A stretch of DNA of 32,000 nucleotides from Candidatus Micrarchaeota archaeon CG1_02_55_22 (GTDB taxonomy: Archaea; Micrarchaeota; Micrarchaeia; Norongarragalinales; UBA97): NCBI GenBank assembly GCA_001871595.1, contig MNVH01000061.1, forward strand, positions 2,065 to 34,064, given 5' to 3'. Shown here in pieces: positions 5,316 through 24,037 of the stretch (its first letter is position 1; every line of letters starts with the position of its first letter). The position numbers and the translations under genes were made by a program. The notes beneath the pieces were generated by a model. That model made no database searches and was not told the origin of the DNA. It saw only the letters and a program-made list of their open reading frames with translations.

Positions 5316-5318
5316 CCA

Positions 5319-5915
5319 ATGTCTGAAAAAATGATTCTGGGGCGGGGGGGTAAGGCCGCACTGCGCAGGCTAGGCGTCAGCCACCCTGAAGAATTGCGTG
5401 ACCGGATATCCGAGTTTATGCAACCGCCTCACGAGACGCTCAAACCGATTGTTCCCGCCGACATGAACATATCATTCAAGGTGCGCCCGCGGGAAGGAAA
5501 ACCGGTCGTGGTAGAGTTCGCCAGTTCGTCGACGGATTCTTTGCACCGTTTCAATGCGCACCAAGCCATCAACACGGCGCTAAAAGCCGCAGGGCTCGCG
5601 CACCGCGTGGTGCGACCGTTGGCGGCCTCGAAGGGCTTCAACGGAGTATTCGTTGTTGAAGCCGCGCCCGAAGACTACGTTCACGGCCCGCTAGCCGCAC
5701 GCAACCCGGACGTAATGGTCGCGCTCGACGCCGAGATGGCCAATATTGCACGTGCGGTCAAAGAACATGCCGGAAAACATTTCAAGGACTTGGACGCCGG
5801 ACACCAAGGCTCGCGGGAGGACCCGAAGTATTACTCTAACGTCTTCGTCCACCCGGACTTTCCAAGAGTCAATAAACTCGTGCTCATTGACCAAGGCCAC
5901 GCACCCGGAAAGTGA
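5319..5915 (+). CDS. Hypothetical protein embedded between trpC and trpB
   Basis: 198-aa ORF with ATG 3 nt after the trpC stop and its own stop 6 nt before the trpB start. AAGGGGA lies about 10 nt upstream. I recognise no family. Confidence 0.6.
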   Translation: MSEKMILGRGGKAALRRLGVSHPEELRDRISEFMQPPHETLKPIVPADMNISFKVRPREGKPVVVEFASSSTDSLHRFNAHQAINTALKAAGLAHRVVRPLAASKGFNGVFVVEAAPEDYVHGPLAARNPDVMVALDAEMANIARAVKEHAGKHFKDLDAGHQGSREDPKYYSNVFVHPDFPRVNKLVLIDQGHAPGK

Positions 5916-5921
5916 TTTTAG

Positions 5922-7106
5922 TTGAAGAAAGGTTATTTCAGCGATTTTGGGGGCGTGTTCGTCCCGGAGACGCTTATGCCCGCGCTCGTCGAGCTTGAAG
6001 CTGCTTTCGAGTCCGCACGCAAAGACGACGCTTTCCTAGCAGGGCTCGAAAGCGAGTTCAAGTCTTTCGTCGGAAGGCCCACGCCAATCACTTTTGCTCC
6101 ACGCTTGAGCGAAGAACTCGGCTGCGAGTTGTATTTCAAACGCGAAGACTTGTGCCACTCCGGCGCGCACAAGATAAACAACGCCCTCGGCCAAGCCCTG
6201 CTTGCCAAAAAGATGGGTAAAAAACGCGTCATCGCAGAAACGGGCGCGGGACAACACGGCGTCGCGGTTGCAACCGCGGCAGCACGCCTCGGGCTCGAAG
6301 CCGAAATATTTATGGGCGAAGTTGATATGGAGCGGCAGAAGCCCAACGTTTTCCGCATGAAGCTGCACGGCGCTAAAGTCACGCCGGTATCAAGCGGCTC
6401 GAAAACGTTGAAGGACGCGGTCAACGAATGCCTGCGCGAGTGGACTTCGAGCGTTAGAACGACGCACTACTTGCTTGGAAGCGCCTTGGGCCCGCACCCG
6501 TACCCCGAAATGGTCGCGTTCTTTCAGAGCGTCATCGGCCGCGAGGCTAGAAAACAGTTTGCCGAGTCGCCGGGCGGTTTGCCTGACGTAGTCGTGGCGT
6601 GCGTGGGCGGCGGAAGCAATTCAATCGGCATATTCAAAGGATTCCTTGACGAAGCGAGCGTGCGGCTTGTCGGCGTGGAGGCCGGCGGCAGAGGAATAGA
6701 ATCAGGATTGCACGCGGCGCGTTTCTCCGACGCAAAGAAAGGCAGGGTGGGCGTGTTGCACGGTACCAAGTCATTTGTGTTGCAGGACACTGACGGCCAA
6801 ATCGCCGAGACTCATTCGGTGAGCGCGGGGTTGGACTACCCCGCAGTGGGCCCCGAGCACGCCGCGCTGCGCGAAAGCGGCAGGGCAAGGTACGATTACG
6901 CTACCGACACGGAGGCGCTCGCCGCTTTTAAGCTGCTCTCGGAAAAGGAGGGCATCCTTCCCGCGCTGGAGAGCAGCCACGCGCTCGCGTGGGTGGTAAA
7001 GCACGCCAGCGAGCTTGCAGACAAGAGGGTTCTGGTCAACTTGTCCGGCCGGGGGGACAAGGACGTTTTCCACGTTGCCAATGAATTGGGTGAACGAATT
7101 GACTAG
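5922..7106 (+). CDS. trpB: Tryptophan synthase beta chain
   Basis: [49 protein letters not shown] (PLP lysine motif) and [11 protein letters not shown] start is preceded by GGAAAGTGA. Confidence 0.95.
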
Positions 7107-7116
7107 GTTCGCCTCA

Positions 7117-7911
7117 ATGTTTGAGCGGCTCCGCGGCGAGAAGAAGAAAGCAATCATACCGTTTTTTGTCTTGGGCGACCCCGACGAAGAAACAAGTTTT
7201 GAAGTGCTAAAGGCGGCGATTGACGGGGGCGCCGACGCATTAGAGCTGGGTCTTGCTTTCTCGGACCCAATTGCCGACGGCCCGACGGTACAGGCGGCGG
7301 ACGTTCGCGCGCTCGCGTCTGGAATGAATACCGGCAAAGCGCTTGCGCTAGTCAAACGCGTGCGCGCTTACTCGCCAAAGACCCCGATTGGCTTGCTCGT
7401 TTACTATAACCTCGTATTCCAGCCCGGCGTTGACGCGTTCTGCGCCGCAGCGAAGGAGGCGGGTGTTGACGCGGTGCTTGCAGCCGACGTGCCCGTCGAG
7501 GAAATAACACCGCTAAAGGAGGCGTGCGTCAAGCACGGGCTTGATACCGTGATGCTTGCCGCGTTGACTACGCCGGAAGAAAGGCTCGAACGGATTTTGA
7601 AGGTTGCGTCAGGATACTTGTACGTCGTCTCGGTGTTGGGCGTGACCGGCGCGAGAAAAGACGTGCAGGACGAGACGCTTGAGCTGATTGTAAGGCTGCG
7701 CAAGCGCACGCAGCTTCCGCTCGTCGTGGGCTTCGGCATCTCGACGCCGCAGCAGGCACGGCGCGTGTGCGACGCGGGGGCGGACGGCGCGATAGTGGGC
7801 AGCGCGCTCATCAAGGCATTGCAAGAGCATGCGGGCGATGCCGAGGCTCGTGCCGCCGAGGCGAAGCGGTTCGTGGCAGGGTTGAAGAACGGCTTAAGAC
7901 CAGCGGAATGA
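7117..7911 (+). CDS. trpA: Tryptophan synthase alpha chain
   Basis: MFERLRGEKKKAIIPFFVLGDPD..., ELGLAFSDPIADGPTVQ and GFGISTPQQA. The track ORF opens at 7015 inside trpB. ATG 7117 gives the canonical N-terminus; ATG 7081 is an alternative. Confidence 0.9.
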   Translation: MFERLRGEKKKAIIPFFVLGDPDEETSFEVLKAAIDGGADALELGLAFSDPIADGPTVQAADVRALASGMNTGKALALVKRVRAYSPKTPIGLLVYYNLVFQPGVDAFCAAAKEAGVDAVLAADVPVEEITPLKEACVKHGLDTVMLAALTTPEERLERILKVASGYLYVVSVLGVTGARKDVQDETLELIVRLRKRTQLPLVVGFGISTPQQARRVCDAGADGAIVGSALIKALQEHAGDAEARAAEAKRFVAGLKNGLRPAE

Positions 7912-7959
7912 TTACTGCAAGTTAAGCTTTATTTAGTCCGCTTACTAAAAGAGTCTAAA

Positions 7960-8853
7960 ATGGCGGTACGCGATTCTAGCTGGTTTTCAAGCGCGCTTTA
8001 CTCGGACTTCCCCCGGCACTACCAGACTTTTTCCAGCCTGAACGCGTTCGCCCGGAACCGCCTTTTGCGGGCTTTGCAGGTGCCCCGCGTTCCGGATGAG
8101 AGAGTCAGTGCGTTGGAAGTCGGGCCGGGCTTTAGTCCGATGCTTACGCAGAAAAATTTCGGCCGTTCGACGTTCCTCGACTTTTCCGGATGGTTCACGA
8201 AGCACCTGAAAACGGGATTGGACCGAGTCGCCCCGGAAAGGGCGCGCGAGTACTTGATGGCGGTTAGAAATGTCGGTTGGACGAACCAGCCTCACCTGAA
8301 TAGATTGTACGGCCCGAAGCAGTTGGCGCAGGTCAGAGCCGACGCGCAGGCAAGGCTTGACGCGATGGCCGACTCGGAGGGCCTTGAACCTGAACGGTTC
8401 TCCTTCGTGAAAGGCGACTTGCGCCGCCTTCCGTTCGGGCCCCATGCGTTCCACTTGGCGCTGCTACCCGAAGTACTCACCCACATTGAACCGGAGAAGC
8501 GCGCGGACGCAGTTGCAAGGCTTGCCGACGCGGTGACCCACCGGCTCGTCATCGTCGACCGGCCGCCGCAACCGGGCCTTTTACTCGAACCCGAGCCGGT
8601 AAGAATCATCCGGCCCGAAGCGCCGACCGTAAAGCCGGTGATGTCGGAGCAGGCGGTTGACCCCGAAGAGCTCCGAAGAGTGCTTATAAGCAAGGGCTTC
8701 AGGGTGCGCGTGGAAAGGCACGATTTCAGCCACCTGCCGGAATTCAAGGATACGGAAGGCTATTTCCTGCTTACTGCGGACAGGCGGATGCCAGCGCGGG
8801 TCAGGCGGGGCGTGGCGGGCCGTAAGGTGCGGCGTAGCGGACGAGTGCGCTGA
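7960..8853 (+). CDS. Class I SAM-methyltransferase-like protein with degenerate motif I and a strongly basic C-terminal tail
   Basis: ALEVGPGFSP is motif I-like. FVKGDLRRLPFGPHAFHLALLPEVLTHI is motif II/III-like. The tail is RRMPARVRRGVAGRKVRRSGRVR. A TATA-like CTTTATTTAG lies about 27 nt upstream of the ATG. Confidence 0.55.
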   Translation: MAVRDSSWFSSALYSDFPRHYQTFSSLNAFARNRLLRALQVPRVPDERVSALEVGPGFSPMLTQKNFGRSTFLDFSGWFTKHLKTGLDRVAPERAREYLMAVRNVGWTNQPHLNRLYGPKQLAQVRADAQARLDAMADSEGLEPERFSFVKGDLRRLPFGPHAFHLALLPEVLTHIEPEKRADAVARLADAVTHRLVIVDRPPQPGLLLEPEPVRIIRPEAPTVKPVMSEQAVDPEELRRVLISKGFRVRVERHDFSHLPEFKDTEGYFLLTADRRMPARVRRGVAGRKVRRSGRVR

Positions 8854-8902
8854 CAACGGAACAAATACGCTTTTTACCTGTTGCAGCCCATAATAGTTTA
8901 TT

Positions 8903-9994
8903 ATGGATGGATTCGAGTTCGGCGAGAAATTCAAGCTCAAGGTGTCCGGTAGTAGCCACGGCCCAAGCGTCGAGCTGGAGCTTTACGGTTGTCCGGCGGG
9001 AGTAGAGGTTTCGGTTCAAGACATCCAGGCCGAGCTTGACAAGCGCAAGCCGGGCCAGAGCATTCTTACTACTTCGCGCAAGGAAGACGATTTAGTGGAA
9101 GTTTCAAGCGGGATAGCGGACGGACTGACAACGGGCGGCGCTATCAGCATGCTTATCCGCAACAAGAACACTATTTCCGCCCATTATGAATCAATCAAGT
9201 TCAAGCCGCGGCCGAGCCACGCCGATTATCCCGCCCGCGTCAAGTACGGTATGGATTTTGACTTGCGCGGCGGAGCGTTCTTCTCAGCGCGCATGACTGC
9301 CGCGTTCGTGATGGCCGGCGCGGTGGCAAAGAAATTCCTCGCGCAAAAAGGCGTCAAAACGATGGCGTTCACGAAAAGCATCGGCAAAGTAAACGTGGCA
9401 CGCGAGGTCTCTGACGAAGAAATACTGACAAATGTTTACCACAACCCAGTCAACACTGCCGCACCCGAAGCGGCCGAGGCAATGGTTGCAGAGGTTGAGG
9501 CCGCACGGCGCGACGGCGACTCGGTCGGCGGCGTGGTGGAGTGCCGCGTTACTGGGCTGCCTCCCGGCGCCGGAGACCCGTTGTTCAAATCCATCGAGAG
9601 TACGATTGCGCAGGCGGTATTTGCGATTCCTGCGGCCAAGGGAATCGAATTCGGCTCCGGCTTTGCCGGCTCTGCCTCGCGCGGCTCGGCCAACAACGAC
9701 GAGTACCGGCTTAAGGATGGCCGCGTGGTAACCACGTCAAATAACTCGGGCGGAATACTGGGCGGATTGAGCACGGGAATGCCCATAGTGTTCAGGGTGG
9801 CGTTCAAGCCTACTGCCAGCATATTCAAAGAACAGCGTACAGTGGACTTATCAAGCATGACTGAGACCACGCTGAAACTCGAGGGCCGCCACGACCCGTG
9901 CATCGCGATAAGGGCGGTGCCGGTAGTGGAGCACGTCGCGGCTTTTACGACGGCAGACATTCTACTGAGGCCTGAAGAACGTGGACGAAATTGA
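8903..9994 (+). CDS. aroC: Chorismate synthase
   Basis: SGSSHGP, RPSHADY, GGAFFSARMTAA, RRDGDSVGG, NNSGGILGG and GRHDPC motifs. Confidence 0.92.
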   Translation: MDGFEFGEKFKLKVSGSSHGPSVELELYGCPAGVEVSVQDIQAELDKRKPGQSILTTSRKEDDLVEVSSGIADGLTTGGAISMLIRNKNTISAHYESIKFKPRPSHADYPARVKYGMDFDLRGGAFFSARMTAAFVMAGAVAKKFLAQKGVKTMAFTKSIGKVNVAREVSDEEILTNVYHNPVNTAAPEAAEAMVAEVEAARRDGDSVGGVVECRVTGLPPGAGDPLFKSIESTIAQAVFAIPAAKGIEFGSGFAGSASRGSANNDEYRLKDGRVVTTSNNSGGILGGLSTGMPIVFRVAFKPTASIFKEQRTVDLSSMTETTLKLEGRHDPCIAIRAVPVVEHVAAFTTADILLRPEERGRN

Positions 9995-11261
9995 AGTAAG
10001 ACCGGCCGACGGCATGGACGCGTCGGTTGCCGCGCCGCCAGCCAAGGCGTACACTCTGCGCGCGCTCTTTCTCGCCGCACTCGCGCCTGGCCGAAGCGTA
10101 TTGACAAACCCGCTTTACGGCGACGACCAGCGTTACGCCATGGGCGCGTTGACTGGATTCGGCGCGTCGTTCACGCAAGAGGCTGACCGCGTCGTGGTAG
10201 ACGGCGCGGGCGGGGGTTTGCTTGCCCCTGAGAAAGTCTTCATCGGCAATTCTGGCGTCTCGATGCGTTTTCTTTGTTCTGTTGCCGCGCTTGCGGGCAA
10301 GGGCGGCGAAAAGATTGTGGTTGACGGCGACGAGCGGATGCGACAGCGCCCTGCCGGCGAGCTCCTCGACGCGCTCGAAGCGCTCGGCGCGGGCGTAAGC
10401 ACGGCCCGGGGTGATGGATGCCCACCGATAGAAATTATAGGCAAGAGCCTGCGCGGCGGCAAGGCAGTTGTCGACGCGGAAAAGAGCTCGCAGTTCGTCT
10501 CGTCGCTGCTTGTGGCGTTGCCGCTCGCGCCAGAGGATTCAGTCTTATCGATTAAAGGCGCGTTCAACTCACGGCCGTACGTCGGAATCACGCTTGACTG
10601 CATGAAGGAATTCGGCGTAAGAGCGGCGGATGAGGGTAATCGGTTCACGGTCAAGGGCCAGCAGTCTTACACGGCGCGTGAATACGCTATTGAAGGCGAT
10701 TACTCTTCGGCGTCGTTCTTCTTCGAGGCAGCTGCCATCACGGGCGGGCGCGTTCGAGTATCAAACTTGAAAGAGGATTCCTTGCAGGGCGACAAGCGTT
10801 TTCTTGAGCTAATGCGTGGAATGGGCTGCAAGGTGGATTGGAGTAATGGTACGGTCTTGGTTGAGGGGCCGGATCGGCTCGAGCCGGTTGACGCGGATAT
10901 GGCGGATTGTCCTGACATCGTGATGCCACTAGCAGTGGCTTGCGCCTTCGCCGACGGAGAGAGCCGCATAGCTAACGTCGGGACGCTCAAGTACAAGGAG
11001 AGCGACAGGCTTGAAGCAGTTCGGAGCGAGCTCGCACGCATGGGTGTGAATGCTCAAGTAATAGACGGCGAAGAATTAGTCGTCAAGGGTGTTAACCCGG
11101 AAAACTTGCATGGTGCGGCCATTGAAACGTATAACGACCACCGCATTGCTATGTCTTTCGCGGTTGCCGGGCTGCGTGTGCCGGGCGTCAGGATAAGAAA
11201 CCCGGGTTGCGTGAGCAAGAGTTTTCCAGACTTCTTTGAACGGCTTGAAGCGTTGCGCTAG
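9981..11261 (+). CDS. aroA: 3-phosphoshikimate 1-carboxyvinyltransferase (EPSP synthase)
   Basis: PPAKAYTLRALFLAALAPG, GNSGVSMRFL, MRQRP, KSSQFVSSLL, KESDRL and NDHRIAMSFAVAGL. GTG start overlaps the aroC stop by 14 nt, which suggests translational coupling. Confidence 0.92.
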   Translation: MDEIEVRPADGMDASVAAPPAKAYTLRALFLAALAPGRSVLTNPLYGDDQRYAMGALTGFGASFTQEADRVVVDGAGGGLLAPEKVFIGNSGVSMRFLCSVAALAGKGGEKIVVDGDERMRQRPAGELLDALEALGAGVSTARGDGCPPIEIIGKSLRGGKAVVDAEKSSQFVSSLLVALPLAPEDSVLSIKGAFNSRPYVGITLDCMKEFGVRAADEGNRFTVKGQQSYTAREYAIEGDYSSASFFFEAAAITGGRVRVSNLKEDSLQGDKRFLELMRGMGCKVDWSNGTVLVEGPDRLEPVDADMADCPDIVMPLAVACAFADGESRIANVGTLKYKESDRLEAVRSELARMGVNAQVIDGEELVVKGVNPENLHGAAIETYNDHRIAMSFAVAGLRVPGVRIRNPGCVSKSFPDFFERLEALR

Positions 11262-11824
11262 ACAACGGGGCGCGGTCTTGGCTCAGCGGGGTGCCGTGAT
11301 TGCTTGGGCTGGCTGAATTCAGAGAGCACCCTGCGCGCCTTGGCGCCAACTGAATCTTCTGTTACTATCGTGTGCGCTGCGGAACGGTAATGGCCCTCAC
11401 GGGCGACGAGTATTTCACGCAACCGGCCTTCCGGGTCTTCGCCTTGCAGCAAGGGCCGCTTGGCAACCTCTTCGGGGTTGCGCATGAGCCGTGCAACCAG
11501 CTTTTCCGGGCTGGCGCTCAAGTAGAACACGCGGCCGTTGTGGCGTAGCGTCGAGACGTTGCGCGGGTCCAGCACGGCTCCCCCACCGGTTGCTATTATC
11601 ACGTTCTTGAGCTTGCTTACGCGCGCGATGACGTCTGCCTCAAGGTGCCTGAACGCGGGCTCCCCGTCCTCGCTGAATATTTCGTGAATGCTTCGGCCAG
11701 CGGAGCGTTCAATTTCGTCGTCGGTGTCTATGAAGCGCCAGTGCAGTCTTTCTGCGAGTATCTTGCCAAGGCTGCTTTTTCCACTGCCCATCATTCCAAC
11801 AAGCACGATATTGGGCCTATCCAT
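11258..11824 (-). CDS. aroK: Shikimate kinase, bacterial AroK/AroL (P-loop NMP-kinase) type
   Basis: IVLVGMMGSGKSSLGKILAERL, FIDTDDEIE and ATGGGAV. Convergent with aroA; the two stop codons share one CTAG (11258..11261). Confidence 0.9.
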   Translation of the reverse strand: MDRPNIVLVGMMGSGKSSLGKILAERLHWRFIDTDDEIERSAGRSIHEIFSEDGEPAFRHLEADVIARVSKLKNVIIATGGGAVLDPRNVSTLRHNGRVFYLSASPEKLVARLMRNPEEVAKRPLLQGEDPEGRLREILVAREGHYRSAAHTIVTEDSVGAKARRVLSEFSQPKQSRHPAEPRPRPVV

Positions 11825-12835: not shown

Positions 12836-13831
12836 TTACTCCCAGCTTAGATTGCCCGACGTCTGGTACTCGGTGACGCGTGTCTCGAAGAAGTTCTTTT
12901 CCTTAGACAAATCCACTGATTGGCTCATCCACGGGAACGGGTTCTCGGTGTGGTACTGCTTTGGCAGCCCGATTCGTTCGAGGCGGCGGTCGGCAATGTA
13001 CTCTACATAGTCGATGAACTGTTGCGCGTTTATTCCGAGTATTCCTTGAGGGCACGCGTCGAGCGCGTACTTCTTCTCGAGCTCGACGGACTGCTTGATT
13101 AGCACAACTAACTCGTCTTGGAACTCTTTGCTCCACACTTCGGGGTTCTCAGTGCGAATCGTGTTGATGAGGTCGCAGCCGTAAGCCAAATGCAGGCTTT
13201 CATCGCGCATGATGTACTCGAATTGTTCACCTATGCCTATCATCTTGTTCTGGCGTTTTAGCGCGAGCATCATGGCGAAGCCGGCGTAGAAGAATATGCC
13301 CTCCATGATGACGTAATAACCAACTAAATCGTGCAGGAACTTTCGTAAATCCTCGGTTGTCTTCGTCTCGAAGTTTGGGTCGAAGATGCTTTTCGTCAAA
13401 TCAACAACGAAGTCGTCCTTGTCCTTGATTGACGGAATGGTCTTGTACATGTTGTATATCTCGTCGGGGTTGAGGCCGAGCGTGTCACAACAGTAGATGA
13501 AGGTATCGGTGTGGATTGCTTCCTCGTATGCCTGCCGTAGCATGTACTGGCGGCACTCGGGGTTGGTGACGTGGCGGTATATTGCCAGAACGATGTTGTT
13601 GGCGGTGAGCGATTCTGCGGTCGAGAAGAAACCCAGATTCCATAAGATCAAGCGTCGTTCGGTCTCGCTTAGCACGGTTGTCGATTTCCATTGTTCGACG
13701 TCTTTCTGCATCGAGACTTCTTCAGGCGTCCAGTTGTTGGCTACGCCTGCCTTGTAGTGCTCGCGCGCCCAGAGGTAAGTCATGGGCAAAATCTTGTTCG
13801 GGTCGGTCATTGAGTCGTTTATTATGGGCAT
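12836..13831 (-). CDS. nrdB: Ribonucleotide reductase small subunit, class Ic type (R2c; Phe at the radical-Tyr position)
   Basis: Ligand motifs are FSTAES (Glu73 where class Ia has Asp), EEAIHTDTF (Glu104, His107, Phe111; codon 13499..13501), MEGIFFYAGF and RDESLHL. From memory it lines up block for block with Chlamydia trachomatis R2c (LGFFSTAESL..NNIVLAI..HVTNPE.RQY.LRQA.EEA.HT.TF). GGTGAT SD before the ATG. Confidence 0.92.
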   Translation of the reverse strand: MPIINDSMTDPNKILPMTYLWAREHYKAGVANNWTPEEVSMQKDVEQWKSTTVLSETERRLILWNLGFFSTAESLTANNIVLAIYRHVTNPECRQYMLRQAYEEAIHTDTFIYCCDTLGLNPDEIYNMYKTIPSIKDKDDFVVDLTKSIFDPNFETKTTEDLRKFLHDLVGYYVIMEGIFFYAGFAMMLALKRQNKMIGIGEQFEYIMRDESLHLAYGCDLINTIRTENPEVWSKEFQDELVVLIKQSVELEKKYALDACPQGILGINAQQFIDYVEYIADRRLERIGLPKQYHTENPFPWMSQSVDLSKEKNFFETRVTEYQTSGNLSWE

Positions 13832-13840
13832 TATATCACC

Positions 13841-16660
13841 TTATTGGCATGATTCGCACGTCGGGTCGTCTATCCTGCAAAGTTTGGGCGTGAAGCCCGG
13901 CGTTGAAGCTATTTGTACGGGCGCGGTTGAGGGGTCCGTGCCAGTTGCGCCCGGCGCGGTTGTCTCCATCGCGTGGTACTCGCGTTTTTGCGTAAAGCCG
14001 TACTTGGCCGCGTCGAGCGTTGATTTCTCTATCTGGCTCGCGGCGAGCGTTCGGAGGTAGTACGTTGTCTTCAAACCCATCTTCCACGCGTAGGTGTACA
14101 TTTCGTGCAACCTCGTCCCCGATGCGCCTTTCATGTATAGGTTGAGGGACTGGCTCTGGTCAATCCACTTGCTCCGAACCGCGGCGTGGCGGACGAGCCA
14201 TTCGGTGTCGATTTCGAATACTTCCTTGTACTTGGACCGGAGTTTGTCGGGCAGTGCGGCGAGGAGTTGTACGCTGCCGTCGTAGTACTTGAGCTGGTCG
14301 AGCATCTCATCGTTCCACGCTCCGAGCGCCTTGAGGTCGGTTACTAAATACGAGTTGACTACGGTGAACTCTCCGCTGATGTTCGCCTTGACGTAAATGT
14401 TCTTATAGATTGGTTCGATTGTTGGAATGCAGCCGGCAATCGTTGAAATCGTGGCGGTTGGCGCTATGGCCATGGTGTTCGAGTTGCGCATTCCATACTG
14501 CCGCACGTGCTCGCGCACAGGCGCCCAGTCGAGGGTCTCGACTCGTTGCAGGGGAATTTGTACGCCGCGTTCCTCCTCCAGCAGGGCAAGCGAGTCGAGT
14601 GGAAAGATTCCACGGTCCCACTTGGAGCCCTTGAAACTCGAGTAAGCGCCTTTTTCTTTCGCTATTTCGCTCGATGAGAGTATGGCGTGGTAGGCTACTA
14701 GTTCCATCATCGAATCGGAGAAGGCAACTGCGGCTTCCGAATCAAAGTTGAGGTCGAGCTTGTAGAGCGCGTCGTGCAAGCCCATTACGCCCAAACCTAT
14801 TGGCCGGTGGCGGAGGTTAGAGTTTCGCGCCTCGTCGGTTGGGTAAAAGTTGATTTCGATGACGTTGTCGAGCATTCGTATGGCGGTCTTGACTGTCCTT
14901 GCAAGCAAGTCCTTGTCTAGCTTGCCGTCAACGACGTGGCGGGCGAGGTTGACCGAGCCGAGGTTGCACACCGCAGTCTCGTCGGCCGAAGTATTAAGCG
15001 TGATTTCGGTGCACAAATTTGACGAGTGGACGACTCCGTCGTGGTCTTGCGGTGAGCGGATGTTGCAGGGATCCTTGAAGGTAATCCACGGGTGACCCGT
15101 CTCAAAAAGCATGCTGAGCATCTTGCGCCACAGCTTAACAGCGGAAACAACTTTGTGTTTGCGGATCTTTCCGTTGCGCGCCATTTCTTCGTATTCCGCG
15201 TAACGCTTCTCGAACTTTTTCCCGTATATGTGGTGCAAGTCGGACACTTCCTCCGATGAGAAGAGCGTCCACGTGCCGTCTTCGAGCACGCGCTTCATGA
15301 ACAAGTCCGGAATCCAGTTCGCAGTATTCATGTCGTGCGTGCGGCGGCGTTCGTCGCCCGTGTTTTTCCTTAGGTCGAGGAAGTCCTCGATGTCCAGATG
15401 CCACGTCTCAAGGTAGGCGCACGTGGCGCCGCGGCGCTTGCCCGAGCGGTTGATAGCCATCGTCACGTCGTTGGCTATCTTGAGGAAAGGTATAACGCCT
15501 TGGCTCTCGACTTTCGTGGTTTTTATCCACGAGCCGGTTGCGCGCAGGTTGGTCCAGTCATTGCCTAATCCGCCGCTCCACTTTGAGAGCTGCGCGTTGT
15601 CGCCGAGGCACTTGAATATGTGCTTCAAATCGTCCTCAACCGTAGTGAGGTAGCACGAGCTGAGCTGGGGATTCGTGGTGCCCGAGTGAAAAAGCGTGGG
15701 CGTGGAAGAGACGAAGCGCAGCGTGGAGAAGATCTCGTAGAACTCAAGCGCCTTATCGTTCTTATCCTTCTCGTTGAGGGCGAGTCCCATTGCCACTCGC
15801 ATCCAGAACGATTGCGGCAACTCCAGACGCGTGTCACCCAACTTCAAAAAGTACCGCTCGTAGAGCGTCTGTATGCCGATGAAACCGAAGAATTGGTCCC
15901 GCTCGAGGTTAAGGCCCTTAGAAAGGCGTTCGAGATCGAACTCCAGCAGCGCTGGGTCGAGCAAGCCGTCCTCAACGCCGCGCTTTATCCCTTCAACGAA
16001 TTTTTCGCGGTAAGCCATGCCGTGAAAGTCGTCGGCCGCGGACTTGCCGATTACTTCCTTGTACAGTTTCTGTAGAAAGAGCCGCGCGGAAACGTGGCTG
16101 TAGGCAGGGTCGTGCTCGATGAATGATATTGAAGAAAGGACTAGGGCTTTCTGGATTTCTTCCGTGGTGACGCCGTCATAAATATTTTTTATCGCTTCTT
16201 TTGCAATGGTGTCGATTGACACGTCTTCTTCAAAGCCCTTGCTGGCGCGGGCGATTGACGCCTTGAGCTTGCTTAGTTCAAATAATACCATTCGGCCGTC
16301 GCGTTTTTTGACGCGTAGCTTGCCGAGCAGCGATTTTTGCACGTTCTCGTGGCGGGCGCGCTCGCGGTCGTCGTGGCGCTTGGCGCGGTAGAGAATGTAC
16401 TCTTTTGATACTTCGTAGAGGCCGCGTTTTACGAGGTGCTTTTCCACGAGGTCTTGAATGTTCTCGACGTTTGGGAAGAAGTCGGTGAAGCGTTCCTCGA
16501 CTTCGCGCGTGATATCAACCGCAATCGCGTCTATGAGGTCTTGCGGCACGCTTGCCCCGGTGGCTTTGACTGCCTTGCCTATGGCGTTGCCGATGCGGCC
16601 CGAATCAAAGTCTACTACTTCGCCGTTGCGTTTTACCACCATCATGTTACCGTTTTCCAA
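13841..16660 (-). CDS. nrdA: Ribonucleotide reductase large subunit, class I, with two N-terminal ATP-cone domains
   Basis: Two ATP-cones: VVKRNGEVVDFDSGRIGNAI... and RVKKRDGRMVLFELSKLKASI.... Catalytic motifs are SSCYL and HSSNLCTEI, with a C-terminal CESCQ redox tail. TTG start is preceded by GGGAGGG with 6-7 nt spacing. Confidence 0.93.
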   Translation of the reverse strand: MENGNMMVVKRNGEVVDFDSGRIGNAIGKAVKATGASVPQDLIDAIAVDITREVEERFTDFFPNVENIQDLVEKHLVKRGLYEVSKEYILYRAKRHDDRERARHENVQKSLLGKLRVKKRDGRMVLFELSKLKASIARASKGFEEDVSIDTIAKEAIKNIYDGVTTEEIQKALVLSSISFIEHDPAYSHVSARLFLQKLYKEVIGKSAADDFHGMAYREKFVEGIKRGVEDGLLDPALLEFDLERLSKGLNLERDQFFGFIGIQTLYERYFLKLGDTRLELPQSFWMRVAMGLALNEKDKNDKALEFYEIFSTLRFVSSTPTLFHSGTTNPQLSSCYLTTVEDDLKHIFKCLGDNAQLSKWSGGLGNDWTNLRATGSWIKTTKVESQGVIPFLKIANDVTMAINRSGKRRGATCAYLETWHLDIEDFLDLRKNTGDERRRTHDMNTANWIPDLFMKRVLEDGTWTLFSSEEVSDLHHIYGKKFEKRYAEYEEMARNGKIRKHKVVSAVKLWRKMLSMLFETGHPWITFKDPCNIRSPQDHDGVVHSSNLCTEITLNTSADETAVCNLGSVNLARHVVDGKLDKDLLARTVKTAIRMLDNVIEINFYPTDEARNSNLRHRPIGLGVMGLHDALYKLDLNFDSEAAVAFSDSMMELVAYHAILSSSEIAKEKGAYSSFKGSKWDRGIFPLDSLALLEEERGVQIPLQRVETLDWAPVREHVRQYGMRNSNTMAIAPTATISTIAGCIPTIEPIYKNIYVKANISGEFTVVNSYLVTDLKALGAWNDEMLDQLKYYDGSVQLLAALPDKLRSKYKEVFEIDTEWLVRHAAVRSKWIDQSQSLNLYMKGASGTRLHEMYTYAWKMGLKTTYYLRTLAASQIEKSTLDAAKYGFTQKREYHAMETTAPGATGTDPSTAPVQIASTPGFTPKLCRIDDPTCESCQ

Positions 16661-17069: not shown

Positions 17070-20000
17070 ATGCAGTTCAACATACGTAAACGCACGGGTG
17101 AGGTAGTCGCTTTCGACCAATCGAAGATTACCAACGCAATCTATAACGCGGCGAAGGCTGTTGGCGGAAGAGACCGCAAGCTCGCACTCGAATTATCGAA
17201 CAAAGTATTTCTTGAACTGCAAACACAATTCCCCGGCGACGCAATACCTCCAGTCGAAGCCGTACAGGACATCGTTGAAAAGACGCTCATAAAGGAAGGT
17301 CACGCCAAGACCGCCAAGACTTACATACTCTACCGCAAACAGCACGAGGACTTGCGCGACGTCGAGGCGCTGATGAACTCGTTCGACTTGATTCACGGCT
17401 ACATCGGCAAGACTGATTGGAAGGTGAACGAGAACTCGAACATGACGTACTCGTTGCAAGGATTAAACAATTACATTGCCGGCGAAGTGATTGCCAACTA
17501 CTGGCTGCGAAAGTTGTACCCCGCAGAGATTGGCGACGCACACGCCAGCGGCGATTTGCACATCCACGACCTCGGCACGCTCGGGCCGTACTGCGTCGGC
17601 TGGGACTTACAGGATTTGCTCACGCAAGGATTCGGCCACGTCAGCGGCAAAATCGATTCAAAACCAGCGGGACACTTCCGCACTGCGCTCGGCCAAGTAG
17701 TCAACTTCTTCTATACCTTGCAGGGCGAGGCCGCCGGCGCACAGGCATTCAGCAGCTTTGACACCCTCCTCGCACCGTTCATCCGCCACGACAACCTCTC
17801 CTACGATGAAGTCAAGCAATGCATGCAGGAATTCACGTTCAACGTCAACGTCCCCACACGAGTAGGATTCCAATGCATGTCGGAAGACACCACAATCCTT
17901 ACCCCGGAAGGCTGGAAATCGCACGGCCAACTAAAAGTAGGCGACGTAATACGCACGTTTAACGCCAAGACCGGCCAAACGGAGGACAAGCCAATCAAGC
18001 GACTCTTCTCACGTCAATACAAGGGCAAAATGTTCAACCTGCGCAACCGCATTCAAGACCAGCTCGTCACGCCCGAACACCGCGTCGTACGCAAGCCGTT
18101 CAACTCACCCGCTCGGGAATACGTGCTCGAACCAATCGAGAAAGTAATCGAACTCAAGTCCCCGGTAATCATTCCAGTAGCGGGAACGAACTGCCGGCTG
18201 GACGCCCAGATAAATGACGACGAGATACGCCTACTGGCTTGGCTCATTGCCGAGGGCACGAGTGAACATCCCAGCCAAAAGCACCGCCAGTGCGGCCGCA
18301 TCACGCTGGTGCAATCCGCCACGGCAAACGGCGCGTACTGCACCGAGATACAGGAAACGCTCGACGTCCTCGGCCTCGATTACGGATTCACCGAGAAGCA
18401 CGGCACGCAATACAGCCCGAACAGCGTAATGCACCAGTGGCGTATGAACGCCGGGTCGTCACGCCGCGTGCACTCGCTCTTCGGGGAAAGCTACGACATC
18501 AAGCACATCCCGCCAATACTTCGCCAGCTAAGCCAGAAACAAGCACGACTCTTCCTAGAAACGTACCGAAAGGCCGACGGCCAGAAGGACGCGTTCAAGA
18601 TAAGCGTATCCGACGAACGCGTGCTCGAAGGGTTACAGCAAATCGCTTGCGACGCAGGCTACGGTTTCACTACGCTCAACCGTGGCAAGACCGCCATAGG
18701 CAACAAACCGATATACGTCCTGAGAATAATCGAGCACAACGATACCTACATCCAAGAAATTCGCGAAGTGGACTACGAGGGCGTGGTATGGTGCCCAAAT
18801 ACTGACAACGAGACCGTGATCGCGCAACGCAACGGCAAAGTGTTCATAACCGGAAACACTCCGTTCACAAATATCACGATGGACCTCTCGGTGCCGAAGA
18901 ACATGGCGAGCATGCCTGCAATAATTGGCGGCAAACCGGTTGGCGCGCCGTACGGTGATTATGCCGAAGAGATGACGCTGCTCAACCGCGCGTTCGCCGA
19001 GACGATGATGGAGGGCGACGCCAAGGGCCGCGTGTTCACCTTCCCAATACCGACCTACAACATTACGAAAGACTTCCCGTGGGAAAGCGATGTCACGCAG
19101 AAAATCTTCGAGATGACTGCCAAGTACGGCATTCCGTACTTCGCCAACTTCATCAACAGCGACATGAGCACAGAAGACGCACGTTCAATGTGCTGCCGGC
19201 TTCGGTTGGACAACCGCGAGCTGCGCAAGCGTGGCGGCGGATTGTTCGGCGCCAACCCGTTAACGGGATGCTATGACGAAAAGACCGAGATACTCACGGA
19301 GAACGGCTGGAAGCACTTCGCCGACCTTTCGACGGACGACGCGGTATTCACGTTAAGGCAGGATAACGTCATCGAAGCACACAAACCGAACCGGCTATTC
19401 GTCTACGATTGGAACGGAGAAATGTACAACTTCAAGACCAAGTCCCTGGACCTGCTGGTAACGCCCAACCACCGCATGGTTGTCGACCACAAGGGCGGGC
19501 ACCTTGGAAACAAGCTCTCAAGGACGTTCGTAGAAGCGCAAGACTTCAATCACAACGTGCACCGCATACCAAAGCAAGGAACGTGGGCAGGCGTAGAGGA
19601 GGAGTATTTTGAGCTGCCGCAAATCAATTACACCAAGTACGGCGCGCAAGGAAAGACCGCGTACACCGTGACAACCCAACTACTGAAAATTAAGATGGAT
19701 AGCTGGCTCAAGTTCTTCGGCATCTGGCTGGCCGAGGGAAGCTATGACAACGACGGCATCGCGGCCGGCCACGGATACCGGGTATTCATCACGCAACGCC
19801 GCGAGAACGTGAGAAAAGACATAGAATCAATGCTGCGGGAGCTGCCGTTCTCTTTCGCGGCCGAGGGCGACAATTACGTCATCTGCAACAAACAGCTCTG
19901 GACGTACCTAAAGCAGTTCGGCCGCGCATACGACAAGCACGTTCCGGCAGACCTGAAGAGATTGGGCAAACGGCAGTTACGCATCCTGTTCGACTGGATG

Positions 20001-21197
20001 GTCAAAGGCGACGGCCACGTGCGCAAAACCACGGGCCAGACAAATTATTGGACGTCTTCAAGCCGCTTGGCCGGAGACCTGCAGGAGATTGTAATGAAGC
20101 TCGGCTGGCTTGGAACGCTGAGCGAGCGCAATCGGGGAGAAATAAGCATTGAAGGCCGCACCCACAAGACCGTAACCAATTATTGCATCGGTGTGCAAAA
20201 GTCCGGCCGCTACCGCCTCAGAGCGGGTGGCATAAAGAAGGTTGCGTACAACGGCAAGGTATACTGCTGCGAGGTGCCCAATAACACGGTAATGGTCAGG
20301 CGGCACGGAAAAGTATCGTGGTGCGGAAACTCCATCGGCGTGGTGACGATGAACCTGCCACGCGTCGGCTACTTGAGCAAGAACGAGGACGAGTTCTTCG
20401 AACGCCTCACGAAGTTGATGGACATTGCCCGCGACTCGCTCGAACTCAAACGCAAGATTTTGGAGAACTTCACCGACAAGGGAATGTACCCGTACTCTAA
20501 GTACTACTTGCGCACGGTCAAGGAGGCGACGGGCGATTACTGGACCAACCACTTCAACACAATAGGGCTCGTCGGAATGAATGAGGCCCTCACCAACCTG
20601 CTCGGCACCACGATTGCGACCAAGGAAGGCATCGCGTTTGCCGCCAAGACGCTCGACTTCATGCGCGACAGGCTCGCTGACTACCAGGAAGAAACGGGCA
20701 ACTACTACAACCTCGAGGCAACGCCGGCCGAAGGCACAAGCTACCGGCTCGCGCGAAGCGACAAGAAAAAATATCCCGACATCCTTGTTGCCAACAACTC
20801 GCCGGAAGCAAAGCCGTTCTACACCAACTCTACGCAGCTACCGGTCAACCACACCAACGATATCTTCGAGGCGCTGGAATTGCAGGAACCGTTGCAGACG
20901 CGTTATACCGGAGGCACGGTGCTGCATGGGTTCTTAGGCGAAAGAATTGATTGGCGGGCTGCCCGCACTGCGGTCAAGCGCATAGCAGAAAATTACCGCC
21001 TGCCGTACTTTACGCTCACGCCGACGTTCAGCGTCTGCCCCAAGCACGGTTATCTTTCCGGCGAACACGTTTACTGCCCCATCTGCGACGGCGAGATAGG
21101 GTTCAAGGAGGGTGAAGAAAATGGAAAACGAGAGGACACGGTGCGAAGTATACAGCAGAATAGTGGGATACTTGCGGCCAGTAGACCAGTGGAATGA
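17070..21197 (+). CDS. nrdD: Anaerobic (class III) ribonucleoside-triphosphate reductase interrupted by two inteins; this frame lacks the glycyl-radical motif
   Basis: N-terminal ATP-cone (IRKRTGEVVAFDQSKITNAI). Extein motifs include GDLHIHDL, SMCCRLRLD, GGGLFGANPLTG|SIGVVTMNLPR, YNLEATPAEG and YTNS. The Zn-ribbon-like CPKH...CPIC follows. The frame ends in non-homologous sequence (GKREDTVRSIQQNSGILAASRPVE). Confidence 0.9.
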   Translation: MQFNIRKRTGEVVAFDQSKITNAIYNAAKAVGGRDRKLALELSNKVFLELQTQFPGDAIPPVEAVQDIVEKTLIKEGHAKTAKTYILYRKQHEDLRDVEALMNSFDLIHGYIGKTDWKVNENSNMTYSLQGLNNYIAGEVIANYWLRKLYPAEIGDAHASGDLHIHDLGTLGPYCVGWDLQDLLTQGFGHVSGKIDSKPAGHFRTALGQVVNFFYTLQGEAAGAQAFSSFDTLLAPFIRHDNLSYDEVKQCMQEFTFNVNVPTRVGFQCMSEDTTILTPEGWKSHGQLKVGDVIRTFNAKTGQTEDKPIKRLFSRQYKGKMFNLRNRIQDQLVTPEHRVVRKPFNSPAREYVLEPIEKVIELKSPVIIPVAGTNCRLDAQINDDEIRLLAWLIAEGTSEHPSQKHRQCGRITLVQSATANGAYCTEIQETLDVLGLDYGFTEKHGTQYSPNSVMHQWRMNAGSSRRVHSLFGESYDIKHIPPILRQLSQKQARLFLETYRKADGQKDAFKISVSDERVLEGLQQIACDAGYGFTTLNRGKTAIGNKPIYVLRIIEHNDTYIQEIREVDYEGVVWCPNTDNETVIAQRNGKVFITGNTPFTNITMDLSVPKNMASMPAIIGGKPVGAPYGDYAEEMTLLNRAFAETMMEGDAKGRVFTFPIPTYNITKDFPWESDVTQKIFEMTAKYGIPYFANFINSDMSTEDARSMCCRLRLDNRELRKRGGGLFGANPLTGCYDEKTEILTENGWKHFADLSTDDAVFTLRQDNVIEAHKPNRLFVYDWNGEMYNFKTKSLDLLVTPNHRMVVDHKGGHLGNKLSRTFVEAQDFNHNVHRIPKQGTWAGVEEEYFELPQINYTKYGAQGKTAYTVTTQLLKIKMDSWLKFFGIWLAEGSYDNDGIAAGHGYRVFITQRRENVRKDIESMLRELPFSFAAEGDNYVICNKQLWTYLKQFGRAYDKHVPADLKRLGKRQLRILFDWMVKGDGHVRKTTGQTNYWTSSSRLAGDLQEIVMKLGWLGTLSERNRGEISIEGRTHKTVTNYCIGVQKSGRYRLRAGGIKKVAYNGKVYCCEVPNNTVMVRRHGKVSWCGNSIGVVTMNLPRVGYLSKNEDEFFERLTKLMDIARDSLELKRKILENFTDKGMYPYSKYYLRTVKEATGDYWTNHFNTIGLVGMNEALTNLLGTTIATKEGIAFAAKTLDFMRDRLADYQEETGNYYNLEATPAEGTSYRLARSDKKKYPDILVANNSPEAKPFYTNSTQLPVNHTNDIFEALELQEPLQTRYTGGTVLHGFLGERIDWRAARTAVKRIAENYRLPYFTLTPTFSVCPKHGYLSGEHVYCPICDGEIGFKEGEENGKREDTVRSIQQNSGILAASRPVE
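17874..18857 (+). mobile_element. Intein 1 in nrdD (328 aa) with LAGLIDADG homing-endonuclease domain
   Basis: Starts at Cys269 (CMSEDTTILTPEGW) and ends ...VFITGN|T. Dodecapeptide-like motifs are LLAWLIAEGT and LFLETYRKADGQ. Removing it joins VPTRVGFQ|TPFTNITMD. Confidence 0.85.
19269..20330 (+). mobile_element. Intein 2 in nrdD (354 aa) with LAGLIDADG homing-endonuclease domain
   Basis: Starts at Cys734 (CYDEKTEILTENGW) and ends ...VSWCGN|S. Dodecapeptide-like motifs are FFGIWLAEGS and LFDWMVKGDGH. Removing it restores the conserved GANPLTG|SIGVVTMNLPR block. Confidence 0.85.
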
Positions 21198-21252
21198 AGG
21201 AAAGAAGGAAGAGTACGGCCTGCGAAAGGAATTCGCGCTCAAAGAGTGCTAG
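21121..21252 (+). CDS. NrdD glycyl-radical C-terminal segment in a separate frame (43 codons from ATG 21121)
   Basis: My translation is MENERTRCEVYSRIVGYLRPVDQWNEGKKEEYGLRKEFALKEC*. It contains the class III RNR glycyl-radical motif (R-x-x-G-Y; compare E. coli RRTCGYLG). GGAGGGTGA (21107..21115) lies 5 nt upstream of the ATG. The ORF is below the 60-aa track cutoff. Confidence 0.7.
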   Translation: MENERTRCEVYSRIVGYLRPVDQWNEGKKEEYGLRKEFALKEC

Positions 21253-21258
21253 AACCGC

Positions 21259-21978
21259 ATGCAGTTCGGCGGAGTGCAGAAAACGAGCTTCATAGACTAC
21301 CCCGGCGAGATCAGCGCCGTGCTGTTCACGCAAGGGTGCAACTATAGCTGCGCCTATTGCCACAACGCCGACTTAATAGCTTTCAAGGAAAGCGCGGACG
21401 AGAGCGAACGCGTAATCGCCGACCTCCTAACCCGGAAGAAGAACGTTGACGCGGTGACTATTACGGGCGGCGAGCCTACCGTACAACGCGACTTGCCCCA
21501 GTTCATGAAGCGCTTGAAGGATGAGGGGTTCAAAGTCAAGCTCGACACTAACGGGTCAAACCCGGACTCGGTGAAAATGATTCTCTCCAAAGGCCTTGCC
21601 GATTACATGGCAATGGATGCGAAAACCTCGCTCAAAAGGTACCCCGAACTCGCCTTTACCGGCGTGAGCGAACGCGTGCAAGCAACTAGCAGGATAATCA
21701 TGGATTCCGGCGTTGACTACGAGTTCCGTACAACAGCGTTTCCGCCCCTCGTCGGAGAGAGCGAGATGGAGGACATGGCGCAGTGGCTCTCCGGCGCCGA
21801 GAACTATTTCCTGCAACAATTCAATCCCGGCCACACCAACCACCCCAGCGCCAAACTAATCGCGCCATACTCGGTCAAAACGCTCTCGCGCCTGCTCGAC
21901 ATCATCCGCCCCCGCGTCAAGAACGCCTCGCTTCGGGGAGTCGACGTGCCCACGCCCGTAGAAAAGTGCTCTTGCTAG
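21259..21978 (+). CDS. nrdG: Anaerobic ribonucleotide reductase activating protein (radical SAM)
   Basis: SFIDYPGEISAVLFTQGCNYSCAYCHN carries the CxxxCxxC cluster motif. ITGGEP is present. The gene lies immediately downstream of nrdD. Confidence 0.9.
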   Translation: MQFGGVQKTSFIDYPGEISAVLFTQGCNYSCAYCHNADLIAFKESADESERVIADLLTRKKNVDAVTITGGEPTVQRDLPQFMKRLKDEGFKVKLDTNGSNPDSVKMILSKGLADYMAMDAKTSLKRYPELAFTGVSERVQATSRIIMDSGVDYEFRTTAFPPLVGESEMEDMAQWLSGAENYFLQQFNPGHTNHPSAKLIAPYSVKTLSRLLDIIRPRVKNASLRGVDVPTPVEKCSC

Positions 21979-23906: not shown

Positions 23907-24037
23907 TGGAGGGAGAGGGATTTGAACCCCCGAACCCCTAAGGGATGAGATGCCTTATCGGCAGCCCCGCTTCATTGTTCGGCGGGGTTCACCAGACCTT
24001 GAGTCTCACGCATTTGGCCGGGCTCTGCCATCCCTCC
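23907..24037 (-). tRNA. tRNA-Leu(CAA), class II, with 46-nt intron at canonical position 37/38 (intron 23952..23997)
   Basis: Minus-strand read: acceptor GGAGGGA/TCCCTCC; D-arm GCA-GAGCCCGGCCAAA-TGC. Anticodon stem TGAGA/TCTCA forms only after removing GTCTGG...ATAAGGC. Loop is CTCAAGA (anticodon at 23999..24001). Variable arm is TCCCTTAGGGGTTC and T-arm is GGGGG-TTCAAAT-CCCTC; discriminator A, no encoded CCA. A T5 run lies 9 nt downstream. Confidence 0.85.

Follow-up and report, generated by a model that had tools for sequence, protein, structure and literature searches.

A class III ribonucleotide reductase of a Micrarchaeota archaeon whose glycyl-radical peptide is probably translated as a separate chain

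The stretch of DNA analyzed here, referred to as the window, comprises 32,000 nucleotides (nt) of contig MNVH01000061.1 (positions 2,065 to 34,064, forward strand) from Candidatus Micrarchaeota archaeon CG1_02_55_22, and carries an operon for a class III ribonucleotide reductase (RNR). The nrdD gene of this operon, which encodes the catalytic subunit, ends without a glycyl-radical motif. A short open reading frame (ORF) that overlaps the end of nrdD in the +1 frame encodes this motif and is followed by nrdG, which encodes the activase. The features of the locus, in coordinates of the window, are listed below.

17070..21197, + strand: nrdD ORF of 1375 codons for the large (catalytic) subunit, with ATP-cone, barrel, two inteins and zinc ribbon
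17079..17348, + strand: ATP-cone domain (Pfam PF03477, residues 4-93, E = 1.4e-19)
17874..18857, + strand: intein 1, 328 amino acids (aa), boundaries VGFQ/C...ITGN/T, weak Hint_2 match
19185..19211, + strand: SMCCRLRLD motif, read from the sequence
19269..20330, + strand: intein 2, 354 aa, boundaries PLTG/C...WCGN/S, with a LAGLIDADG homing-endonuclease domain (Pfam PF14528)
21036..21086, + strand: zinc-ribbon motif CPKH-x10-CPIC, by alignment to Thermotoga maritima NrdD; conservation of the large subunit ends here
21097..21099, + strand: TAG closing the +1 frame upstream of the small ORF, conserved in the close relative L337 described below
21105..21115, + strand: Shine-Dalgarno (SD) sequence AAGGAGGGTGA inside the large-ORF tail, recognized by its position and its conservation in relatives
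21121..21197, + strand: 77-nt overlap of the two ORFs, in which the large-ORF tail reads NGKREDTVRSIQQNSGILAASRPVE
21121..21252, + strand: small ORF for a 43-aa glycyl-radical peptide, MENERTRCEVYSRIVGYLRPVDQWNEGKKEEYGLRKEFALKEC, covering Pfam NRDD positions 530-562
21166..21168, + strand: GGA codon for Gly16 of RIVGY, predicted by alignment to T. maritima NrdD to bear the radical
21259..21978, + strand: nrdG, radical S-adenosylmethionine activase (NCBIfam TIGR02495 NrdG2, 190 bits against a cut-off of 131; Pfam Radical_SAM)

The Pfam scan of the raw large ORF matched the NRDD family (PF13597) with E = 6.9e-172, and this match stopped at position 528 of the 562 positions of the profile, at residue 1340; no Pfam match was found for the final 35 residues of the 1375-aa product. 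The NrdD barrel is encoded in three pieces interrupted by the two inteins. A continuous NRDD profile match was regained once intein 1 was excised in silico, and loss of both inteins leaves a spliced chain of about 668 aa. The SMCCRLRLD motif matches the 'SCCR' cysteine motif described by Aurelius et al. in T. maritima NrdD (PMC4493059) and may have a catalytic role here. The CPKH-x10-CPIC motif corresponds in an alignment to C..H...CPVC in T. maritima NrdD (4COI/4U3E), and metal binding is predicted for it. Past CPKHGYLSGEHVYCPIC (21036..21086), the large ORF terminates as ...DGEIGFKEGEENGKREDTVRSIQQNSGILAASRPVE and a stop codon. As pointed out in a preliminary description of this DNA, made without database searches, the nrdD frame thus passes a zinc-ribbon-like motif and closes with the glycyl-radical motif (RVxGY) missing from the barrel polypeptide; RIVGY is found in the +1-frame ORF at 21121..21252. 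The GenBank counterpart of the large ORF, OIO24989.1, is identical to the 1375-aa product and is named 'hypothetical protein'.

The +1-frame reading, (MKK)MENERTRCEVYSRIVGYLRPVDQWNEGKKEEYGLRKEFALKEC followed by a stop codon, matched NRDD positions 530-562 with E = 1.5e-9, in agreement with the earlier proposal that the frame closed upstream by TAG at 21097..21099 encodes the NrdD C-terminus. When the two inteins and one base were removed in silico, the fused protein of 711 aa matched NRDD positions 1-562 of 562 with 657 bits. Since no part of the NRDD model is left uncovered after splicing and fusion, the two ORFs correspond to exactly one complete NrdD, with the break located between the zinc ribbon and the radical loop. 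Gly16 of the peptide aligns with the RIVGY glycine of T. maritima NrdD, named Gly621 by Aurelius et al. (PMC4493059).

The ATG of the small ORF at 21121 is separated by 5 nt from GGAGGGTGA (21107..21115), as had been read previously, and the pattern GGAGG-N5-10-ATG has a single match in the 32 kb, at this start, with 3.1 expected. A GGTGA-type SD also precedes nrdB (aaGGTGAtataATG) and the malic enzyme gene (ctaGGTGAaaagATG), so that the SD type noted earlier as common to these genes was found before both. In the window, NrdD, NrdG and the protein encoded after them have identical counterparts in OIO24989.1, OIO24990.1 and OIO24991.1, respectively; because these accession numbers are consecutive, GenBank annotates nothing between nrdD and nrdG. 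No exact match to the 43-aa sequence was found in a collection of 15 billion proteins. Pfam and NCBIfam scans of the peptide returned NrdD models only and none for pyruvate formate-lyase (PFL) or GrcA, scans of Pfam, NCBIfam (June 2026) and PHROGs identified no dedicated family for it, and an Rfam scan identified no RNA element near the junction.

The simplest account of a gene in two frames is an assembly or sequencing error, and the preliminary description had proposed an extra A in the A4 run at 21118..21121, since deletion of one A restores a single frame. The window corresponds to contig k127_265279 of a groundwater metagenome. Four assemblies made with different pipelines from runs SRR1534154 and SRR5036776, including MEGAHIT, Logan and the GenBank metagenome-assembled genome (MAG), were compared, and 271 nt around the junction were identical in all of them. 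Furthermore, two close relatives have the same offset. The nrdD gene of L337 (87.8% nt identity over nrdD, both inteins kept) has the junction ...ttcaAGGAGGatgaaggcaATGgaagaacag..., with the same +1 overlap, an AGGAGG SD and the ATG, and reads ggcaATG at the site where the window has the A4 run, so that no homopolymer is present. L253 (81% aa identity, no inteins, same gene neighbourhood) has the junction ...gcggaaGGTGAgacacATGgaagcccaa..., again with a +1 overlap, a GGTGA SD and the ATG, and its linker is five codons longer than that of the window. An error is therefore rejected, and its probability is considered negligible. L253 and L337 were obtained via protein search and cluster look-up only; when the repaired C-terminal 306 aa were used to scan GTDB genomes and JGI metagenomes, no close relative was identified, and the matches were mostly contiguous Bathyarchaeia NrdDs with at most 67% identity. 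The intein content of these relatives differs, as L337 (88% nt identity) retains both nrdD inteins and L253 has neither, and the unrelated, split-type nrdD of L335 (1147 aa) is likewise intein-bearing.

The linkers of the window, L337 and L253 differ in both sequence and length, and the pattern of codon changes across the junction differs sharply between the two frames. In a 60-nt span of the overlap, seven codons are changed between the window and L337, and seven between the window and L253; in each comparison every change is synonymous in the small frame (7 synonymous, 0 non-synonymous), and every one alters the amino acid in the large frame (0/7). Small-ORF codons 5-32 show 8 synonymous and 0 non-synonymous codon changes between the window and L337, and the same numbers were obtained between the window and L253 for the 21-codon segment RTRCEVYSRIVGYLRPVDQWN. 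The stop of the large-ORF tail lies at a different position in L253 from that in the window and L337. Both the codon test and the shifting tail stop indicate that selection acts on the peptide frame and that the large ORF reads on without constraint through its 25-codon tail. The codon test points to translation of the +1 frame, and is equally consistent with frameshifting and with separate initiation.

These comparisons also bear on the possibility that a frameshift mutation inactivated nrdD and that the lineage relies on the class I RNR encoded next door (nrdAB, 12836..16660). DPANN genomes are reduced, and the name 'hypothetical protein' in GenBank could be taken as a further sign of a decaying gene. 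However, the break is common to lineages that have diverged to 81% aa identity, changes in the radical-loop core are synonymous only, the large ORF is intact over 1375 codons with both inteins included, nrdG is intact and scores above the NCBIfam cut-off, and the SD and ATG are conserved. Decay of the gene is, as a consequence, regarded as highly improbable. The preliminary description had also suggested that close relatives be searched for an uninterrupted ORF; none of them shows one, and where relatives have the break, the SD and ATG are retained.

Inspection of junctions in more distant split loci revealed a variety of arrangements. In L091, an 842-kb contig with ftsZ, ftsA and nrdR, the large ORF ends ...aaggagggtgtttaa (TAA) and the ATG follows directly, in frame, preceded by the SD aaggagggtg, which is the same as that in the window. 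The junction of L078 and L171 is gtaTAGGAGGctataATG (shown also as TAGGAGGctataATG), that of L107 has two stops followed by AAGGAGGaaaaATG, and that of L254 (Ca. Norongarragalina meridionalis) is acgaGGTGAgactATG (shown also as GGTGAgactATG). L087 has a 4-nt overlap (ATGA), L086 a gap of 53 nt, and L252 a gap of 144 nt that is the product of a 152-nt duplication or insertion. The SD before the small ORF is AGGAGG in L337, L078 and L107, and GGTGA in L253 and L254. All three frame relations were thus seen among the split loci, and the constant element is the ATG, with an SD upstream in most. The contiguous relative L028 has a linker at the break site, but neither SD nor ATG.

Programmed +1 frameshifting within 21100..21141, the second reading offered in the preliminary description, would fuse the two frames, with the internal SD as a stimulator as in prfB. 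Removal of one base yields the continuous ...GFKEGEEMENERTRCEVY..., three lineages retain the +1 relation, an SD-like element that precedes the shift site is known to stimulate frameshifting in prfB, and the codon test is compatible with frameshifting because the +1 frame is translated either way. On the other hand, the candidate site has neither an in-frame stop nor an obviously rare codon, and no slippery site is common to the three overlapping lineages (window, L337 and L253), in which the sites read gaa gaa aAT G, gaa ggc aAT G and aca cAT G, respectively. The conserved element is the ATG with its SD. Homologues with in-frame stops, -1 relations or gaps of 53-144 nt have chains that could not be joined by a frameshift, and the peptide is encoded alone in phage contigs. 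We therefore consider frameshifting very unlikely, and the frame switch that had been placed between 21100 and about 21141 does not need to be located, as two overlapping genes account for the sequence.

The L252 junction itself (L252:3831-4047, Micrarchaeota MAG GCA_016207165.1) contains a 44-nt direct repeat (3852-3895 and 4004-4047) around a 108-nt insert. The first small-ORF copy is truncated, is preceded by AAGGAGG with 8 nt before the ATG, and has a +1 overlap with the large ORF like that in the window; the second copy is complete and has a new start. A comparable partial duplication of RTxCEVY, followed by an insert, was found in P0012 and P0082. It is possible that the repeat in L252 was caused by a mobile element, by local duplication or by an assembly artefact.

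Profile searches identified a large family of stand-alone peptides. A profile of three peptides had 3497 matches among 5.8 billion proteins, of which the best 120 are all 39-93 aa long, and a profile of 42 sequences had 4953 matches among 1.84 billion cluster representatives (2486 of them at E <= 1e-10), of which the best 150 are all 45-149 aa long. All but a few of 108 fetched homologues begin with a Met, which a variable leader and RTxCEVYSRVVGYxRPVxQWNxGK follow. These sequences indicate that hundreds of uncultured microbes and some phages encode a stand-alone peptide. Among unusual members, P0156 (149 aa) has an unrelated N-terminal region of 100 aa and a CPTC motif joined to the radical loop, and P0121 and P0171 have the radical-loop motif twice in tandem.

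Radical-domain-less nrdD, small ORF and nrdG occur in this order in all 10 of the 10 cellular loci inspected, and this invariant gene order is the pattern expected of an obligate partner. The nrdR gene lies directly upstream in four bacterial loci (L086, L091, L335 and L336). For the window large chain, the closest homologues, at 81% and 70% identity, all come from split loci, and next are contiguous Bathyarchaeia enzymes without the linker. In a rough neighbor-joining (NJ) tree the bacterial split loci form one clade. A single origin of the split was considered and was not adopted, because this tree places the window with the contiguous L028; the tree is too crude to decide the matter. GenBank lists the large chain of the split enzyme from Ca. 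Norongarragalina meridionalis as 'Vitamin B12-dependent ribonucleoside-diphosphate reductase', yet it matches the class III model.

Viral copies were collected by scanning IMG/VR with the peptide profile (contigs L172-L334), and 80 loci were examined over stretches of up to 10 kb on each side, which covered some contigs whole. In 65 of these 80 viral loci the radical loop is in a short ORF and no NrdD barrel or NrdG was detected within the stretch examined. These stand-alone ORFs encode about 45-145 aa, their neighbours include genes for terminase subunits, endolysin and integrase, and PHROGs contains no family for them. Leaders of three types occur among the viral copies, and one type includes a zinc ribbon, CxxC...CxxC, of its own. 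A 144-aa coding sequence with its own zinc ribbon is also present in the archaeal virus ANMV-1 (KP703175; L338:3680-4114), where it is annotated 'anaerobic ribonucleoside triphosphate reductase', and the original paper took it as an RNR. These viral copies, with no nrdD or nrdG detected around them, show that the module can exist alone.

Such copies raise the question of whether the peptide could act mainly as a spare part. GrcA/YfiD from Escherichia coli and the phage T4 protein Y06I are autonomous glycyl-radical cofactors for PFL (PMC8683613; PMC13450708). By analogy, the peptide might mainly rescue an intact NrdD cleaved by oxygen, whose gene would lie at another place in the genome or in a host cell, with the adjacent truncated nrdD being secondary. 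This explanation would account for the phage contigs that have the peptide alone, and oxygen cleaves glycyl-radical enzymes at the radical glycine in general (PMC8683613); moreover, only 45 kb of the genome were seen. Nevertheless, the peptide gene lies directly after a radical-domain-less nrdD and before nrdG in every one of the 10 cellular loci, and no second nrdD was found in the 32-kb window, which makes a principal role as a spare part for another enzyme unlikely.

The arrangement of the operon is informative with respect to translation. The nrdG ATG lies 6 nt past the small-ORF stop and has neither an SD of its own nor a TATA-like box. In most loci examined nrdG begins 0-12 nt from the small-ORF stop or overlaps it, and in both the window and L253 it lacks its own SD and follows the stop by 5-6 nt. 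This spacing without an SD fits re-initiation at nrdG by ribosomes that have just translated the peptide. SDs in the window are confined to cistrons at internal positions: nrdB, the peptide ORF and the gene for malic enzyme. TATA-like boxes (TTTAAA, TTATAAAT) were observed about 25-30 nt before the ATG, without an SD, at the starts 2865 (- strand), 7960, 8903, 22022, 22695, 24730 (- strand) and 24785, which suggests leaderless archaeal transcripts. For many start codons the distance to such a box is about 27 nt. These boxes, the GC content of 56%, the confinement of SDs to internal cistrons and the tRNA described below give the window an archaeal appearance. A scan for sigma-70 promoters and terminators around the operon was uninformative, the organism being archaeal.

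Adjoining the class III operon, and divergent from it, are the genes of the second RNR of the window:

12836..16660, - strand: class I RNR, encoded by nrdB and by an nrdA that has two ATP-cone matches

The pairing of class I and class III RNRs is also present in L253 and L337, and the presence of a class I RNR suggests that the organism meets oxygen. Elsewhere in the window, positions 4503-11824 contain a cluster for aromatic amino-acid biosynthesis, with genes for indole-3-glycerol-phosphate synthase, a pyridoxal-phosphate enzyme, chorismate synthase, 5-enolpyruvylshikimate-3-phosphate synthase and shikimate kinase; this cluster is of note as DPANN genomes are usually considered biosynthetically poor. 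A tRNA at 23907-24037 on the - strand was detected by Rfam (39 bits) and missed by ARAGORN; its anticodon loop is enlarged by an insertion of 49 nt and its variable arm is long, and it is probably an archaeal intron-containing tRNA.

Taken together, the analyses support the third reading of the preliminary description, a split enzyme with a separately translated peptide, and we conclude that the locus very probably encodes a class III RNR in two chains, of which the smaller carries the glycyl radical. According to this model, ribosomes would start the peptide at ATG 21121 by means of the strong SD within the last codons of the large gene, and nrdG would be translated by re-initiation 6 nt past the peptide stop. 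The 25 large-ORF codons beyond the ATG would then be an unselected tail rather than a frameshift site. NrdG is predicted to abstract a hydrogen from Gly16 of the peptide, and the peptide is predicted to insert in the barrel of the large chain at the position usually taken by the C-terminal loop of single-chain NrdD, and to supply the radical for catalysis there.

Comparison with the T. maritima structures (4COI/4U3E) places the break inside a 14-residue insertion between the CPxC motif and the radical loop. In T. maritima NrdD the C-terminal loop dips into the barrel and meets the finger loop, with the radical glycine buried, and activation by NrdG is proposed to require an outward swing of the loop along with the zinc domain at the surface (PMC4493059). 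A cut at the hinge of this loop would leave the zinc ribbon on the large chain and free the loop. The conserved motif DxEIG(Y/F), with which the large chain ends, may pair with LExKRTxC, with which the peptide starts. An interchain zinc site, with the invariant Cys of RTxCEVYSR as a fourth ligand that would link the two chains, was considered as a candidate and not adopted, as contiguous relatives sometimes have S, T or I at this position, T. maritima has Asp, and some phage copies have T, P or V.

Several points weigh against a two-chain enzyme. We infer from sequence that the small ORF is translated and that the two chains assemble. An overlap of 77 nt is unusual for translational coupling, and ribosomes finishing the large ORF traverse the SD and the ATG. 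The count of the SD-ATG pattern by itself is not above chance in the window, and the weight given to this SD comes from its position and its conservation in relatives, not from its count. An AlphaFold2 model of P0285, a contiguous relative that has a linker, built from a 40-sequence alignment, had a mean predicted local distance difference test (pLDDT) score of 74, with values below 60 for the finger loop and the last 50 residues, and lent no support to docking. An intact nrdD copy may exist elsewhere in the genome. Finally, the window large subunit is grouped with the contiguous L028 in the rough NJ tree and falls outside the main clade of split bacterial loci, which could reflect either repeated origins of the split or a lack of resolution.

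The benefit of a two-chain arrangement can be addressed speculatively. Cleavage by oxygen would cost only a 5-kDa peptide, and the large chain, which is intein-bearing and expensive to make, could be reloaded. The radical domain would in that case be a replaceable cartridge, an obligate version of the role of GrcA/YfiD for PFL. In its full form this proposal states that NrdG activates the free peptide, that the peptide docks in the radical-domain-less NrdD and is replaced after oxygen cleavage, and that the cellular two-chain NrdDs of DPANN archaea and CPR bacteria belong with the viral stand-alone copies, that of ANMV-1 included, to one unrecognised family; we regard the chances for and against it as evenly balanced. 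If it is true, spare-part systems would for the first time extend beyond PFL to another glycyl-radical enzyme, this would be the first glycyl-radical enzyme with the radical residue obligatorily on a separate chain, and phages would be able to re-arm the anaerobic deoxynucleoside triphosphate supply of their hosts with a gene of roughly 50 residues. It also suggests how organisms with very small genomes at oxic-anoxic interfaces might keep an oxygen-sensitive enzyme affordable.

The locus and the family provide concrete candidates for the study of class III RNR, namely a short peptide that can be synthesized, a large chain and an activase. As the loop is untethered here, they would permit a direct test of how the activase gains access to a buried glycine. 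For annotation, metabolic reconstructions may score such nrdD genes as broken, or such viruses as RNR-encoding.

The radical glycine is normally located at the C-terminal end of the catalytic chain, the only exception known being the PFL spare part GrcA/YfiD (PMC13450708, PMC8683613, PMC4493059). According to a review of June 2026, spare-part proteins are known only for formate lyases, and the existence of others was left open (PMC13450708). The literature searched, which lay mostly outside subscription journals, contained no account of a split NrdD or a spare part of the NrdD type. The two-chain arrangement thus appears to be new for class III RNR, with no guarantee of priority, and combines traits of three known kinds of system: class III RNRs, split RNRs and autonomous glycyl-radical proteins.

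Both the single-chain NrdDs (phage T4; T. maritima, 4COI/4U3E) and the system described here have an ATP-cone, a barrel, a zinc ribbon, the RIVGY loop and an adjacent NrdG. The latter differs in that the radical loop is on a separate polypeptide, that there is a 14-residue insertion after the zinc ribbon, and that nrdD contains two inteins. As in prfB-type +1 frameshifting, the frames are in a +1 relation and an SD-like element lies just upstream; in contrast to prfB, there is no in-frame stop or conserved slippery codon, and homologues have other frame relations and gaps.

Split RNRs are known from other classes. In Pseudomonas aeruginosa, an ancestral class II RNR gene was split in two adjacent genes of one operon, nrdJa and nrdJb, with the C-terminal module on the small chain (PMC4520616). 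In both cases two adjacent, co-oriented genes represent one ancestral RNR gene and are conserved across a clade, and a joint requirement of the two chains for activity is predicted here. However, the RNR class is different, and NrdJb (229 aa) carries redox cysteines, whereas the small chain described here carries the radical site. The class I NrdA of Aeromonas phage Aeh1 is formed by two separately translated chains that reportedly reassemble, the split having reportedly been caused by insertion of a homing-endonuclease gene between the halves (Friedrich et al. 2007). Nothing lies between the halves in the window, where the homing endonuclease is inside an intein elsewhere in the gene.

The closest functional parallel is provided by GrcA/YfiD, which had already been put forward in the preliminary description. 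Both are small stand-alone proteins with a glycyl-radical loop. GrcA/YfiD is activated by the radical S-adenosylmethionine activase of its parent enzyme and inserts in a large chain without a working radical domain, and the same is proposed here for the peptide; as for T4 Y06I and PFL, there are phage-encoded copies. The parallel is therefore apt with regard to how the peptide may work, but it does not extend to its origin or its status. GrcA, of about 14 kDa, is a homologue of the PFL C-terminus, while the peptide, of about 5 kDa, is homologous to NrdD (it matches only PF13597) and not to PFL or GrcA. Furthermore, GrcA backs up an intact PFL after oxygen damage, whereas the nrdD adjacent to the peptide gene lacks a radical domain, so that the peptide appears to be an obligatory subunit.

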